Positions 100 to 62,110 of a stretch of DNA of 64,000 bases are shown one piece after another; the first letter of the stretch is position 1; each line of letters begins with the position of its first letter. The notes under the pieces were generated by a model. That model was not told the origin of the DNA. It did not search any database and saw nothing but the letters and a program-made list of their open reading frames with translations. Source of the stretch: Candidatus Saccharibacteria bacterium QS_5_54_17 (GTDB lineage Bacteria; Patescibacteriota; Saccharimonadia; QS-5-54-17); NCBI GenBank assembly GCA_003022365.1, contig PXOU01000018.1, positions 75,964 to 139,963 of the forward strand, read 5' to 3'. The position numbers and the translations under genes were made by a program.

Positions 100-560
100 C
101 GTAGTTGTCCATTGATTGCAAATAGGCCGTATAGTCTCCCGGCTTATTGAATACCTCGGATGCAGTAAACAACAAGGAGGTGTTTGTGCGCAAGCACCCG
201 GAACCATTATCAAAACCCGGCAACAAAAACCCAGGCGAAACATCATTCCTGAAGATGTCATTCCTGAAACAAGTTCAGGACAGGCTCTGAATTTATTTCA
301 GGATCTTCCCCTATTGTCATCCTGAACTTGTTTCAGGATCTGTTTTAGGCTTGGCTTCAAAACCATATCGGGTTAATAGATTCCGGCTCACTTCGACCTT
401 GCTCAGTGCGGGCGGGGGCCGGAATGACAAAGAGGGTAGCCTCGTAATAACGAACTTTCTCTTGTCATCCTGAACTTGTTTCAGGATCTGTTGCAGAAAC
501 GATTCCGAACTAAATTCGCAGTGACGGAGGAGGTTCGCAGTGACAAAAAGGCTTTGCATT
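100..560. repeat. Composite palindromic intergenic repeat element, copy A
   Basis: Shares modules with copies at 30.5, 39.9, 52.7 and 61.8 kb: tatagtctcccggcttattgaa(c/t)acc; hairpins tcctgaaacaagttcagga and gtcatcctgaacttgtttcaggatctg; gaggctttgcatttttccacttgc... Confidence 0.6.
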
Positions 561-593
561 TTTCCACTTGCTGCTTGCTTCTTGTTCCTGCTC

Positions 594-1451
594 CTACTGA
601 GCGGTCCAGGAATCGGTGCCGGTTCGCCGGACTGAACCGGAGATTTCCATGGTGGCGATGATCCGATTGAATTCAGCGGCGCTCCAGCCGGCGTGATATA
701 TCAAGTCGTCGGTTTCGGTGATGCCTTGGCTGAGCAGTTCCAAAATGTGTGCCTCTTCGGCCGTGGCGGCCTGGGCTTTGGGGGCGGATTCCTCCGCTGG
801 GGGTTCCAGCCCCAAGACATCCAGTACGTCGTCGGCGTTGGTGACCGGCGCGGCACCGGCTTTGATCAGATTGTTGGTGCCTTCGCTCAAAGGTTGGGTG
901 ATGTTGCCCGGTACGGCCATAACGTCCCGATTTTCCTCCAAGGCGAATTCAGCGGTGATGAGCGCGCCGCTGCGAGCGCCGGCTTCGACGATGATGGTGC
1001 CGGCGCATAATCCAGCGATGATCCGGTTCCGGGCGGGAAATCGTTGCCGGGTGGGCGGAGTTCCGTTTTGGTATTCAGTCACCAGCGCTCCGCCGCTGGC
1101 GGTAATGTCGCGGGCTAATTGGCGGTTCCGGACCGGGTGTATGATGTCCAACCCCGAGGCCATAACGGCCACGGTATAGCCGCCGGTGTCCACGGCTGCC
1201 CGGTGAGCGGCCGCGTCGATGCCAAACGCCAGCCCACTAACCACACCGACCCCCGACCGGGCCAGTTCGCCGGCGATCCGGGTGGCCGCTTCTTGGCCAT
1301 AGAAGGTCGCTTTCCGGCTCCCCACCACGGCGACCAGCGGCCGGTTGGTTTCCAGTTCCCCGTTGATATACAGCTGCTTCGGCGGGTGGGCAATTTCGCC
1401 CAATACGGCCGGATACCTTTCGTCATGTGGGGTAATAGCAGGATTTGGCAT
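594..1451 (-). CDS. dprA: DNA-processing protein DprA (Smf)
   Basis: 285 aa; Rossmann-like DprA core with GLAFGIDAAAHRAA motif. Confidence 0.85.
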   Translation of the reverse strand: MPNPAITPHDERYPAVLGEIAHPPKQLYINGELETNRPLVAVVGSRKATFYGQEAATRIAGELARSGVGVVSGLAFGIDAAAHRAAVDTGGYTVAVMASGLDIIHPVRNRQLARDITASGGALVTEYQNGTPPTRQRFPARNRIIAGLCAGTIIVEAGARSGALITAEFALEENRDVMAVPGNITQPLSEGTNNLIKAGAAPVTNADDVLDVLGLEPPAEESAPKAQAATAEEAHILELLSQGITETDDLIYHAGWSAAEFNRIIATMEISGSVRRTGTDSWTAQ

Positions 1452-1735
1452 AAATATCGCTAAATATAGTTGACAAACTTACAAATGAATGATAAAAAGA
1501 GTGCCTAAGGACGTTGCAACGTCCTTGGCACCTCCCATTACTATAGTGACATTGCCCGGGGCATTTTTTCTACCCTCCAGCGATAGTCCGGGCAATGCAT
1601 GTCCCTTCAACGTGGATATTCGTGTCGCATATGACCTCGGTTGAAGGGAGATACAAGACCGCAAGTTTCCCCCCACCCGCTTGCGGTCTTGTTCGTTTGA
1701 AAGACCTATAAAGACCCATTAATCACCAAAACCCG

Positions 1736-2299
1736 TCACTCCACGCGGTAGGTATCGGCGGGGAAATCTTCTCCCTCGATGAATGTTTCCATAAACTGAG
1801 TAGCCGCCTGGAGAATCTCGGGTAACTTATCTTTCTCTTCATCGGCGAAACGGCTCAGTACGAACTTTTCCGCCGGCTGTTTTTCCAAATGTGCATTGGC
1901 GATTCCCAGCCGCAAACGGTTGAACCCGTCGCCGCAATGGGCGATAACGGATTTTATCCCGTTGTGCCCGGCGCTCTCCCCTCCCCGGCGGGCGCGCAAC
2001 GCAGCGAAATTAAGCGCGGCGTCATCATAGACGATCAGCGTGTCAGCAGGATGTATATCAAAAAAACGCTGGGCGGCGGCCACGGCTTCTCCGCTGCGGT
2101 TCATGTAGGTTTGGGGCTTTAAAAGTATGACCGGTTCGCCTGCCTGCTCCAAGCGGGCGGCCATCGATTTCAACTTCTTGTGCCGGGAAAAATCAACCCC
2201 TTTCTCGCCCGCCAGGGATTCGACCGCCATAAAGCCGGCGTTATGGCGGGTTCCCAGGTATTTTTTATCCGGATTACCCAGCCCCGCGATTAATTTCAC
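1736..2299 (-). CDS. pth: Peptidyl-tRNA hydrolase
   Basis: KLIAGLGNP...HNAGF...GHNG motifs. Probable GTG start at 2297-2299 preceded by GGAGGAG SD; the GTG overlaps the der TGA stop (GTGA). Confidence 0.85.
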   Translation of the reverse strand: MKLIAGLGNPDKKYLGTRHNAGFMAVESLAGEKGVDFSRHKKLKSMAARLEQAGEPVILLKPQTYMNRSGEAVAAAQRFFDIHPADTLIVYDDAALNFAALRARRGGESAGHNGIKSVIAHCGDGFNRLRLGIANAHLEKQPAEKFVLSRFADEEKDKLPEILQAATQFMETFIEGEDFPADTYRVE

Positions 2300-60204: not shown

Positions 60205-60568
60205 GGATAATCCGCAGATACAAGAGATCTATTCGGTCACCCTGTCGGCCAACCATTATGAGGTTGCCGTTTCCCAGGATGGGGAAAGCGCCTTGCAGAA
60301 GGCGGCTGAGTTCCGACCCGATTTGGTTTTCCTGGATATCATGATGCCGGGTATGAACGGATTAGAGGTCCTCTCAGAGTTACGGGAAAAACCCGAGTAT
60401 GGGTGCCAGGACGCCAAAATCGTCATCCTGACCAATCTGGGCCAGGACGAGCGCGTCGATGACGCCTGGCAAAAGATGGCCGATGGCTATGTCGTCAAAT
60501 CCGAGATCAAAACCAACGAGATATTCGATGTCATTCAATCACTTGAATCGGCAGAGGCCGGATCGTAG
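60173..60568 (+). CDS. Response regulator, receiver domain only
   Basis: 131 aa; LLVEDN...DIMMP...K. Overlaps the kinase stop. Confidence 0.85.
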   Translation: MAGLQKILLVEDNPQIQEIYSVTLSANHYEVAVSQDGESALQKAAEFRPDLVFLDIMMPGMNGLEVLSELREKPEYGCQDAKIVILTNLGQDERVDDAWQKMADGYVVKSEIKTNEIFDVIQSLESAEAGS

Positions 60569-60717
60569 GATACCTCTCCCTCGGGCGAGGCGAATCAATA
60601 ACCAGGGCATCCCTCGCCACCGTGGCGGGCGCATCCAAAGGATTCGATGAATCCCAGCTGCTGCCGATTTGCCAGAAATATAACCGGGGGTATGTTCCCG
60701 CTTGGTAAATCGGGCGC

Positions 60718-61629
60718 TTATACCCCCGTCGTGCATCGGTAATGGGTTTGCTCGGCGCTGGACATGTTCCGGGTAAGCCAGAATCCCGAAGCCAGCAGCA
60801 AGGTGCCGCCGTAGATAATATTTTCTGAGGGTACTTCACCGAATATGAGAAAGCCGAAAAATGCCGCCACGATGGGTGAGACGACGATATCGACCAAGGA
60901 ATAGACGTTGGCGTCGATGGTTTTTAACACCACACTGATGAACAAGTAAGCGATACCGGTCGATATGACCCCGAGCGAGATTACCCACAGCAATACCGGT
61001 ACCTGCAAACCGAATAAGGCGTTGCTGCTGGCGGCGAACACCGCCCCCGGGCCGAAAATGAATACCGCCGGACTCAGCAGTATGGTGGCGGCTACCATGA
61101 ACCAGAACACGTCGTTGGTGGATTCGGTGTTGCGTTCGTGGCGCATATAGGTGACCAACCCGGCGTAAATCGCCCCGTCTCCGAGCGCGATTAAATTGCC
61201 CAGCATGGCTTCGGGTTGGAACGGTTCGGCAATCAGTAAACCGACAAACGCCAGCATAAAGATAATCACATGTTGCTTTTTGGCCTTCTCTCCCAGGAAT
61301 AACCAGGAGAATATAAACACGAAGAACGGGGCGACGCTCCAGAAGATAACCACGTTAGCGATGGGTGCCAGACTCATGGCGATGTTGAAGAAACTGATTT
61401 GGGCCGCGATCAGGATGCCGACGATGATGATATCCCGGAGATTTTGCCTCGGGAATCGCCAGAAAGACGTGTTGATGAGAGTCATGGCAACCCCCAAAAA
61501 CAGTGCCGCGAACAGTACCCGGTAAAAGTTCAAAGTAAATATGGGCACCGCCTCACCGGTAAGCTTGACAAAGACCCCAATGGTGGCTTCAGCCAGCGTT
61601 ACGGCCAGCAGTGACAAAAAGGTTTTCAT
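60718..61629 (-). CDS. EamA/DMT-family transporter
   Basis: 10-TM duplicated EamA pattern. Start set at ATG 61629 (MKTFLSL). Confidence 0.75.
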   Translation of the reverse strand: MKTFLSLLAVTLAEATIGVFVKLTGEAVPIFTLNFYRVLFAALFLGVAMTLINTSFWRFPRQNLRDIIIVGILIAAQISFFNIAMSLAPIANVVIFWSVAPFFVFIFSWLFLGEKAKKQHVIIFMLAFVGLLIAEPFQPEAMLGNLIALGDGAIYAGLVTYMRHERNTESTNDVFWFMVAATILLSPAVFIFGPGAVFAASSNALFGLQVPVLLWVISLGVISTGIAYLFISVVLKTIDANVYSLVDIVVSPIVAAFFGFLIFGEVPSENIIYGGTLLLASGFWLTRNMSSAEQTHYRCTTGV

Positions 61630-61699
61630 GATAGGAGTAATCTCGCCGGTTTTGGTGTCCGCTGCTGTGGCATACAATGAGCATCACACGTTTCCAGGA

Positions 61700-62110
61700 G
61701 AGGGTCAAGGAGTTTTCATATAGTCTCCCGGCAGCAGCACGCAGACAGCAGACAGCAGTCAGGGAGTGAGAAGCAACAAACTCTGAAGATATCATCCTGA
61801 ACCTGCCTTGCCGGTAGGCAGGCTTGGTTCAGGATCGTTTTTAAAATCAGCTTCAGAACCATATCGGCTTAATGGATTCGGGGCTCGGGGACCGGAATGA
61901 CAGAGAGGCTTTGCATTTTTCCACTTACTTCTTGCTTCTTACTGCTTACTGCTTGCTTCCTGTTCCTGTCATCCTGAATTTATTTCAGGATCTATCTAAA
62001 TTAGCAGTGATATCCGAAACTGATCCCGGATCGGGGTCATAGCCTGTCCTGAACTTGTTTCAGGAATGACGTCTTGGCAATGACAAGGAGGTGTTCAATA
62101 TGTTTCTGAA
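61700..62110. repeat. Composite palindromic intergenic repeat element, copy E
   Basis: tatagtctcccggcagcagcac; catcctgaacctgccttgccggtaggcaggcttggttcaggatc; gaggctttgcatttttccacttacttcttgc; gtcctgaacttgtttcaggaatgac; ggaggtgttcaata. Confidence 0.6.

Follow-up and report, generated by a model that had tools for sequence, protein, structure and literature searches.

Intergenic repeat clusters in a Saccharibacteria contig, probably built of CGTC-tagged palindromic hairpins

The closest described systems to the repeats reported here are the CGTC-tagged repetitive extragenic palindromes (REPs). In the survey by Di Nocera, De Gregorio & Rocco (2013; PMC3733652), members of this super-family carry a CGTC tag (often TGTC, with CCTC allowed), a stem of 8–9 bp with A-T and T-A at positions 1 and 2, a loop of 4–5 nt, and a short tail that is mostly CCA. 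They are described there as extragenic and high in copy number, lying downstream of open reading frames (ORFs) in mainly unidirectional or convergent arrangements; head-to-head dimers dominate, with heterodimers dominating in CGTC-2 and CGTC-3. The survey also lists Proteobacteria (mostly alpha, including sphingomonads), Chlorobi, Bacteroidetes, Spirochaetes, and Thermotogae as hosts, identifies the Neisseria members as dRS3 repeats of Neisseria intergenic mosaic element (NIME) arrays, and gives these REPs "no dedicated transposase" and no dedicated REP-associated tyrosine transposase (RAYT). CGTC REPs had no known partner protein until a 2025 report (PMC11893778) on SsnA, a 94-residue GIY-YIG protein that binds and cuts NTS (CGTCATTCCCGCGMAVGCGGGAATCYRG), an extended dRS3, only as single-stranded DNA (ssDNA). 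The C directly after the palindrome is most important for binding and the three nucleotides upstream for cleavage, and RNA binding by SsnA is reported to be absent; hairpins typically flank the ssn genes, whose products are small single-domain GIY-YIG proteins (cd10448), and donor DNA that carries the repeats transforms less well because of the system (PMC11893778). Here we describe five intergenic loci in a 64,000-nt stretch (the window) of Candidatus Saccharibacteria bacterium QS_5_54_17 (contig PXOU01000018.1, positions 75,964–139,963). These are probably clusters of CGTC-tagged REP hairpins, similar to NIMEs or bacterial interspersed mosaic elements (BIMEs), with three accessory repeats. 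The kind of repeat is already described; Saccharibacteria are not in the five-phylum list of the 2013 survey.

The five loci, with their modules in order (A, B/B′, X, heptamers, and hairpin types C, D, E, and H are described below), are as follows.
130–596: locus 1, dprA stop to topA leader; A/B palindrome, spacer X, C hairpin, two tag-outward pairs, and a CT-rich heptamer array touching the dprA stop.
30555–30870: locus 2, mreB stop to GT4 start; A-B, a C/D tag-outward pair, and a tag-outward pair of H and D with palindrome.
39870–40146: locus 3, between the divergent nfo and a 538-aa gene; a B...B′ palindrome around spacer X and one tag-outward pair (D with palindrome, E).
52596–52992: locus 4, phasin-like gene stop to helix-turn-helix (HTH) gene start; A′/A hairpin, heptamer array G, C, a D/E tag-outward pair, G′, and an "empty" B-loop-B′ palindrome.
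61719–62102: locus 5, stop of a 117-aa ORF to EamA start; A, heptamers, a pair of D with palindrome and H, heptamers, a D/C pair, and B′.

The shuffled modules are common to all five loci far above chance. Module A (TATAGTCTCCCGGC, up to 2 mismatches) occurs five times, always on the + strand, against 0.23 expected, a count reached by none of 100 shuffles, and module B (CTTATTGAACACCTCC, up to 3 mismatches) is found seven times where shuffles predict 0.42. A whole-window repeat search returned many direct and inverted matches between loci, 40–117 nt long at 85–95% identity, among them 249–365 with 52715–52831 (117 nt, 88%), 30570–30674 with 61996–62100 (105 nt, 93% complementary), and 30801–30865 with 39995–40059 (65 nt, 95%). 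At every locus, both strands form structures far more stable than those of dinucleotide shuffles (z −2.5 to −8.8). An earlier note on this DNA had claimed such a five-locus family; every module that it quoted was located where it had placed it, and the claim of shared modules stands, while the end of locus 1 moves from 560 to about 596.

Two further loci lie off the left end of the window on the same contig of the European Nucleotide Archive (ENA; k119_85533), giving seven in approximately 73 kb. One (L005 18178–18560; L numbers denote fetched loci) is situated between topA and a sigma-like gene, and the other (L174 18560–18960) between a DUF87 gene and a convergent gene. Over the stretches holding loci 1, 2, 3, and 5, contigs of ENA assembly ERZ27230158 match the window with 100% identity, and the loci are therefore not an artefact of one assembly. 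Restriction to the window and an assembled-in artefact, the two findings that the earlier note had named as fatal to its claim, are both ruled out.

The core module is a 25-nt hairpin formed by a YGTC tag, an 8–9 bp stem beginning AT, a loop of 3–5 nt, and a C tail. Its types in the window are these.
316–340, + strand: type D, tGTC ATCCTGAA cttgt TTCAGGAT c, loop of the general form YTTRT; identical or near-identical copies at 464–488 (+), 52782–52806 (+), 61968–61992 (+), and 30696–30720 (−).
52820–52844, − strand: type E, cGTC ATTCCGAAC ttg GTTCGGAAT cca; another copy at 40102–40126 (−) and a decayed one at 501–525 (−).
30744–30770, + strand: type H, tGTC ATTCCGG ... CCCGAAT cca; other copies at 61875–61901 (−) and, with a 26-nt loop, 379–428 (−).
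257–281, + strand: type C, GTCATTCCTGAAACAAGTTCAGGAC, with arms GTCATTCCTGAA..TTCAGGAC; other copies at 30600–30624 (+), 52723–52747 (+), and 62046–62070 (−).

The type D arms ATCCTGAA and TTCAGGAT enclose a 5-nt loop; the type E arms ATTCCGAAC and GTTCGGAAT allow two readings, 9 bp around a 3-nt loop and 8 bp around a 5-nt loop. In the window, hairpins of types D, E, H, and C all carry tGTC or cGTC, and the two palindrome-filled copies carry aTC. The tail is exactly CCA in types E (52820) and H (30744), and CTG or CTA in type D. In loci 1 and 4, type C is followed by CTCTGAATTTATTTCAGGATC, and this compound shares 94% identity, over 53 nt, with one in an unrelated contig (L137) of ~35% G+C.

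Each locus contains hairpins paired with their GTC tags outward, mostly two different hairpins, and both hairpin orientations occur inside every locus. Three kinds of pair, distinguished by conserved spacers of their own, are found two to three times.
464–525 and 52782–52844: D-tgttgcaRaac-E; with an insert at 40007–40126.
316–428, 30744–30853, and 61791–61901: D-(38 nt)-H.
30600–30720 and 61968–62070: C-...-D.
It is the recurrence of these pair types with conserved spacers that creates the impression of rearranged modules. Repeats in both orientations at irregular spacing also bear out the earlier statement that this is not CRISPR. In one cluster outside the window a complete hairpin is nested in the loop of another, and locus 6, beyond the window, contains a chimeric hairpin joined at the 20-nt palindrome described below (GTCATTCCGG-palindrome-TTCAGGATGAC).

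Two further observations concern the sequence next to the tag. One to three partial direct copies of tag and 5′ arm (GTCATCCTGA...), ~10–25 nt apart, often precede a complete hairpin (window 243–262 and L024, L034, L046, L064, L094, L097, L113, and L123); this "half-site stutter" may record the way in which the repeats arise. G is depleted in the 12 nt upstream of the GTC tag (5–19% against a 22% background; L019–L173 and the window), and on the opposite strand ATGAC is therefore followed by purine-rich runs resembling Shine-Dalgarno (SD) sequences, for example ATGACAAAGAGGG and ATGACGGAGGAGG.

The hairpin family is far from genome-specific, and the same 25-mer occurs across several phyla. A metagenome scan with the pattern GTCATCCTGAAYYTRKTTCAGGATC yielded at least 120 contigs, spanning 26% to 71% G+C among the matches listed, and the pattern is also present in 33 IMG/VR viral contigs. 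In plasmid BLAST searches the exact 25-mer was found on plasmids of Sphingobium, Novosphingobium, and Sphingomonas, and variants of 90–93% identity over ~30 nt on Treponema and Sulfurovum plasmids; a curated phage collection gave no real matches. In viral contigs L171 and L172 a dRS3-consensus hairpin (ATTCCC-N8-GGGAAT) forms a doublet with the type D hairpin of the window.

These wider copies allow the anatomy to be quantified. Among 90 unselected GTC-N5-GAA-N5-TTC-N5 candidates, 76 are fully Watson-Crick paired, against 12.3 after arm shuffling, with eleven stem variants, and stem changes on both sides fill 64 cells against 16.8 expected (0 of 500 shuffles reach 64). When cores were picked without regard to flanks, the tag was present in 95 of 99, and GTC upstream with C downstream was found on exactly one strand in 92 of 99. 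Across the wider set, position −1 is T (63%) or C (24%), and the tail reads C (99%) at +1, T (76%) or C (20%) at +2, and A (36%) or C (37%) at +3. Pairs are tag-outward in 68 cases, tag-inward in 11, and tandem in 14, with unlike hairpins joined in 62 of the 68. Hairpins fall inside open frames of at least 150 codons in 22 of 133 cases (17%), compared with 73% of random positions. The earlier description of a noncoding, extragenic, palindromic family of REP type fits these features of CGTC-tagged REPs.

The same note had also likened the family to miniature inverted-repeat transposable elements (MITEs). This likeness finds no support at the cluster and hairpin borders, where neither a consistent target-site duplication nor terminal inverted repeats of transposase type are seen; the fetched gene lists contain no transposase genes. 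A single 10-bp direct repeat, GTCTCCCGGC, is present at 52624–52633 and 52921–52930 in locus 4. A reading of locus 4 as an inserted MITE that had duplicated a 10-bp target was set aside, the repeat being an unreplicated observation.

The accessory repeats comprise a GC palindrome, tandem heptamers, and a genome-specific A/B palindrome.
30823–30842: 20-nt GC palindrome CCTGCCTGCCGGCAGGCAGG, directly after GAA(C) in a type D loop (filled hairpin 30809–30853).
40018–40037: the same 20-nt palindrome, inside the filled hairpin 40007–40051.
61802–61822: 21-nt variant of the palindrome, inside the filled hairpin 61791–61836.
52634–52673, + strand: tandem heptamer (AGCAAGA), 5.9 copies.
52886–52900 and 61924–61959: partner heptamer CTTACTT.
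61732–61762: partner heptamer CAGCAGA.
554–596: CT-rich stretch of direct-repeat family D8, which Tandem Repeats Finder does not call.
130–143, + strand: module A, TATAGTCTCCCGGC; copies at 30555–30568, 39870–39883, 52620–52633, and 61719–61732, and inverted at 52596–52609.
52930–52976, + strand: B/B′ palindrome CTTATTGAACACC..GGAGGTGTTCAATAAG, with anti-SD-like and SD-like arms, short-looped ("empty").
143–158 with 176–185, 30568–30583, 39883–39898 with 40131–40146 ("filled" with REPs), and 62087–62102: other B/B′ arms.

The type D copy at 30696–30720 lacks the palindrome ("empty"), and in unrelated contigs the 20-mer or a one-base variant is found outside any family hairpin. Heptamer arrays pair across the cluster. 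Module A is invariably placed at the cluster end toward the promoter or start of the next gene. The B/B′ helix extends over 13–16 bp and, in locus 3, encloses the entire REP content; the A/B unit is reminiscent of the "carrier palindromes" reported in certain REP families. A combined A+B pattern (GTMTCCCGGCTTATTGAAYACC) had no matches in GTDB genomes or JGI metagenomes, and A/B is thus known only from this organism. A reading of module X as a small ORF was rejected on the grounds that the frame in locus 1 is not maintained in locus 3.

Flanking genes are unidirectional at five of the seven loci, convergent at one, and divergent at one. Clusters begin at or near the upstream stop codon and leave 18–133 nt before the next start, and topA has clusters on both sides. 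The topA gene begins immediately to the left of window position 1. Its product shares 80% identity with the TopA of an uncultured Candidatus Saccharibacteria metagenome-assembled genome (MAG), the closest relative, and 53% with that of a Patescibacteria MAG. In the closest relative, topA and the sigma-like gene are separated by 75 nt that include the same TTGACA-N17-TATAAT promoter. Here the gap measures 465 nt (L005 18178–18642) and consists mostly of the repeat array (18178–18560), which lies between the topA stop and the −35 box. This junction is an empty-site/filled-site pair. No family hairpins were found in 166 kb of control loci, the closest relative included. The homology with TopA of the relative breaks off ~29 codons short of the stop codon (L005 18150–18177/L006 12240–12280), and the topA stop codon of this organism falls within the first heptamer units of the array.

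The clusters mislead gene callers, as the earlier note had proposed for three genes. This is true of GT4, whose longest ORF reaches 30596 and whose start is called in ERZ27230158 at 30590, within module B, and of nfo, whose ORF reaches 39912 with a called start at 39798; the third label, "GT2", fails, the right-hand gene of locus 3 having no Pfam match. A 67-aa gene (62091–62303, +) is called on the ENA contig just past the SD-like B′ arm, and overlaps a more plausible 117-aa ORF on the opposite strand (62138–62491, −) that is rich in hydrophobic stretches. The 67-aa gene is likely a repeat-induced miscall.

A possible partner protein is suggested by gene neighborhoods elsewhere. Single-domain GIY-YIG proteins (PF01541) of Ssn type (GTLYIGVT...GFT.KY...REKQLK.W.R.WK) are encoded in 8 of 120 contigs chosen by the hairpin alone, seven of the eight genes lying no more than 184 nt from a hairpin, and the genes in L034 and L087 have tag-outward hairpins on both sides. 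The aligned catalytic Y/Y/E residues are one position off SsnA Y6/Y17/E64. This links the present stem subtype to Ssn-type genes independently, and the position of ssn genes between hairpins suggests that it is the nuclease that spreads these elements. Database searches of NCBIfam and PDB sequences with the GIY-YIG proteins returned no informative match.

In the mechanism we propose, the hairpins would act as DNA, not RNA. Each palindrome would fold once its region became single-stranded, and a small Ssn-family GIY-YIG nuclease would recognize the fold through the C after the stem and cut beside the GTC tag, with single-stranded TGTCATCCTGAACTTGTTTCAGGATCT as the putative substrate. In Neisseria, Ssn activity trims incoming ssDNA and lowers recombination near repeats (PMC11893778). 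We infer that an Ssn enzyme acts on the hairpins of this organism and may affect its transformation. Clusters would grow by insertion of repeats beside earlier ones or into their loops, by heptamer slippage, and by recombination between shared modules. That the repeats are mobile is suggested by the empty site, by insertions nested in one another, and by their patchy occurrence.

Several results weigh against this proposal. The readable ~73 kb of the organism contain no hairpin-flanked canonical Ssn-type gene, and the candidate partner nuclease is only the following.
13911–14168, − strand: single-domain GIY-YIG ORF, 85 aa (PF01541, E = 1e-13).
Its product, which scores 40 bits against a five-sequence Ssn-type profile and shares 39% identity with the L087 protein over 54 aa, is a more distant Ssn relative, and the gene sits between tRNA-Glu(CTC) and tRNA-like fragments rather than family hairpins. 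The published Ssn-related motif (SRM), HGTCWYN(0-2)YYVSBRHN(0-5)WNVSBRGN(0-2)RNCYNB, has no match in the window or in the two L174 repeat loci to its left, and membership of the Ssn class therefore rests on architecture and linkage, not on the published definition. As to mobility, there is no consistent target-site duplication, and exact-protein look-ups gave no strain-level presence/absence polymorphism, with only one ENA sample covering the loci. Modules A, B, and X, which were not found elsewhere, fall outside the explanation. Closely related public assemblies are very fragmented, and a 98% identical strain (GCA_003021965.1/ERZ27230159) is represented only by 1.9-kb contigs away from the loci.

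The 85-aa ORF runs into the 5′ end of tRNA-Glu(CTC) (13850–13925), and on the minus strand (window 13700–14230) a tRNA-like 5′ fragment lies before it and a tRNA-like 3′ fragment after it. Both fragments have a TTCCGG-loop-CCGGAA hairpin in place of the anticodon arm, which comes close in form to a degenerate family hairpin (GTT-ATTCCGG-TTGTA-CCGGAAC-G on the + strand). A 109-bp tandem duplication at 13703–13881 of the window is absent from the ENA contig.

In 723 kb of hairpin-selected contigs the SRM motif has eight matches, all with G+C-rich stems; surveys based on it would undercount the family, since it misses the present stem subtype. It is tempting to speculate, tentatively, that the AT-richer CCTGAA hairpins are a large cross-phylum, Ssn-recognized subclass missed by SRM, and that filled and empty loops are footprints of an active, nuclease-driven copy-in aimed at loops. 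The footprints meant are a 20-nt palindrome or a whole REP placed exactly in a loop, and half-site stutters upstream.

Among other explanations, a role at the RNA level is possible but doubtful. Stem-loops in the 3′ region of the upstream gene would stop or stabilize transcripts and insulate units, as in the classical REP role, and this could coexist with a DNA role. Placement agrees with it: five of seven loci lie between same-strand genes and start at or near the upstream stop (topA stop, dprA stop), 18–133 nt with recognizable promoters are left before the next gene, the same placement is reported for REPs generally, and both strands fold well below shuffles. However, stem wobble is balanced (13 G·U, 11 A·C), giving no hint that one RNA strand is under selection, as fits a DNA-level element; both hairpin orientations occur in every locus, and the relative has a 75-nt spacer at the same place. 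By our own reading, made without a formal terminator scan, T-runs follow hairpins only at ~343–346 and 61838–61842, both antisense to the flanking genes. SsnA reportedly does not bind RNA (PMC11893778). The terminator or RNA-structure role raised by the earlier note is left unsupported. Rfam detected only two tRNAs in the window at gathering score, with no match to a locus at E up to 1; in seven related contigs it matched repeat hairpins only below threshold (microRNA, snoRNA, RNA-OUT) and found one tRNA and RNase P RNA elsewhere.

Less probable is a function of the clusters as recombination or insertion sites. The dRS3 repeats are integration targets of filamentous prophages and proposed recombinase sites, clusters flank topA on both sides, the hairpin occurs in 33 viral contigs, and the chimeric hairpin of locus 6 looks like a recombination product. 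The gene lists, however, place no integrase, IS110-type gene, or prophage beside any of the seven loci, and there is no evidence of gene exchange at them.

Movement as REPINs (paired REP elements) by a RAYT, an IS200/IS605-related tyrosine transposase, is very unlikely. Inverted doublets with less conserved spacers, and clusters arising by insertion beside or into elements, are shared with REPINs (PMC3116915), but the tag is CGTC/TGTC instead of GTAG, 62 of 68 doublets join unlike hairpins, CGTC REPs are without a dedicated RAYT according to the 2013 survey (PMC3733652), and a weak regular-expression test found no ORF with an HUH/Y1 motif in ~1.3 Mb of fetched loci.

Most improbable is a set of cis-regulatory leaders, in which A would be a −10 box and the B/B′ helix (anti-SD-like/SD-like) would control translation of the neighbor: A includes the string TATAGT and is always turned toward the downstream gene, B′ (AAGGAGGTG) pairs with B (CACCTCCTT) over 13–16 bp, and the locus 1 helix remains paired on the + strand via two G·U pairs, but the downstream genes are unrelated (topA, GT4, nfo, HTH gene, EamA), the topA leader of the relative lacks A/B, and a start codon follows B′ at one locus only, in an ORF overlapping a more plausible opposite-strand gene. 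Module A itself was rejected as a promoter: by inspection no conserved −35 lies upstream of it, it points away from the adjacent gene, and plausible sigma-70 promoters lie between A and the genes at loci 3, 5, and 6.

Clusters of CGTC-tagged REP hairpins thus remain the preferred reading, and they add to the known hosts a reduced-genome, episymbiotic lineage in which the repeats fill most of several spacers; if the density holds genome-wide, they would make up a few percent of the genome. Literature searches on Saccharibacteria and palindromic repeats returned nothing relevant, and those on the repeat sequence strings nothing useful. Saccharibacteria are naturally competent and reliant on DNA uptake. 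A link to the control of natural transformation is possible, and dprA adjoins locus 1. If the Ssn proposal is true, clusters in a naturally competent genome of ~1 Mb could gate recombination of incoming DNA around genes such as topA, and the small gene set would ease pinning down the responsible enzyme.

Three other regions of the window deserve mention. The pth-dprA intergenic region (1495–1700) is strongly structured, with several hairpins (z −6.6 on the + strand, −3.4 on the − strand), and a homologous stretch lies downstream of pth in a related Saccharibacteria MAG (L006 9530–9720); it is a candidate conserved noncoding RNA, with no Rfam match. ORF 33306–35582 (758 aa), a PEGA-domain gene as called on the ENA contig, differs in length by 261 bp between the window and that contig, at 34685–34945 in its tandem-repeat part. 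The stretch 14800–24000 is a low-G+C island (34–50% against ~55%) with type I restriction-modification genes (HsdR, HsdM) and a DUF3800 gene, and was probably acquired horizontally.

Several known repeat systems resemble the clusters in part. Cyanobacterial small dispersed repeats reportedly include palindromes of up to ~27 nt that nest in other repeats and extend their hairpins, and are said to be associated with tandem heptanucleotide (STRR) arrays; they differ from the present family in sequence and phylum. E. coli BIMEs and Pseudomonas REPINs (PMC3116915) are likewise extragenic palindromes in inverted pairs, form mosaics with other motifs, and grow as clusters by insertion into or beside existing units. 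In contrast to the hairpins described here, they are GTAG-tagged and RAYT-linked, and a REPIN combines the same REP twice so that one long hairpin is possible.

The Neisseria dRS3/NTS/NIME system (PMC1797815, PMC11893778), defined by a 20-bp inverted repeat flanking 50–150 bp RS elements in arrays, shares the CGTC-tagged hairpin, the C after the palindrome, the mosaic arrays with other repeats, and, for the CCTGAA hairpin type in other contigs, the layout of a GIY-YIG gene between hairpins. The stems differ, being ATCCTGAA or ATTCCGAA in the window and not ATTCCCGC, and the nearest hairpin of the window is, by inspection, ATTCCG-N9-CGGAAT, which departs from the dRS3 consensus ATTCCC-N8-GGGAAT. 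A dRS3 regular expression matched three times in the fetched metagenome and viral loci (L054, L171, and L172). Closest are CGTC-2 and CGTC-3 of the 2013 survey (PMC3733652), with CGTC-2 assigned from stem and loop lengths. Large clusters are described there as rare outside Neisseria and Wolbachia, whereas here every locus is a cluster. The surveyed families and the present hairpins both have an unpaired CGTC or TGTC tag, an AT-first stem of 8–9 bp, a 5-nt loop, and a short tail, which is CCA in two copies of the window; they mostly form tag-outward heterodimers in extragenic positions downstream of ORFs, and are patchily distributed across phyla (Sphingomonadaceae, Spirochaetes).

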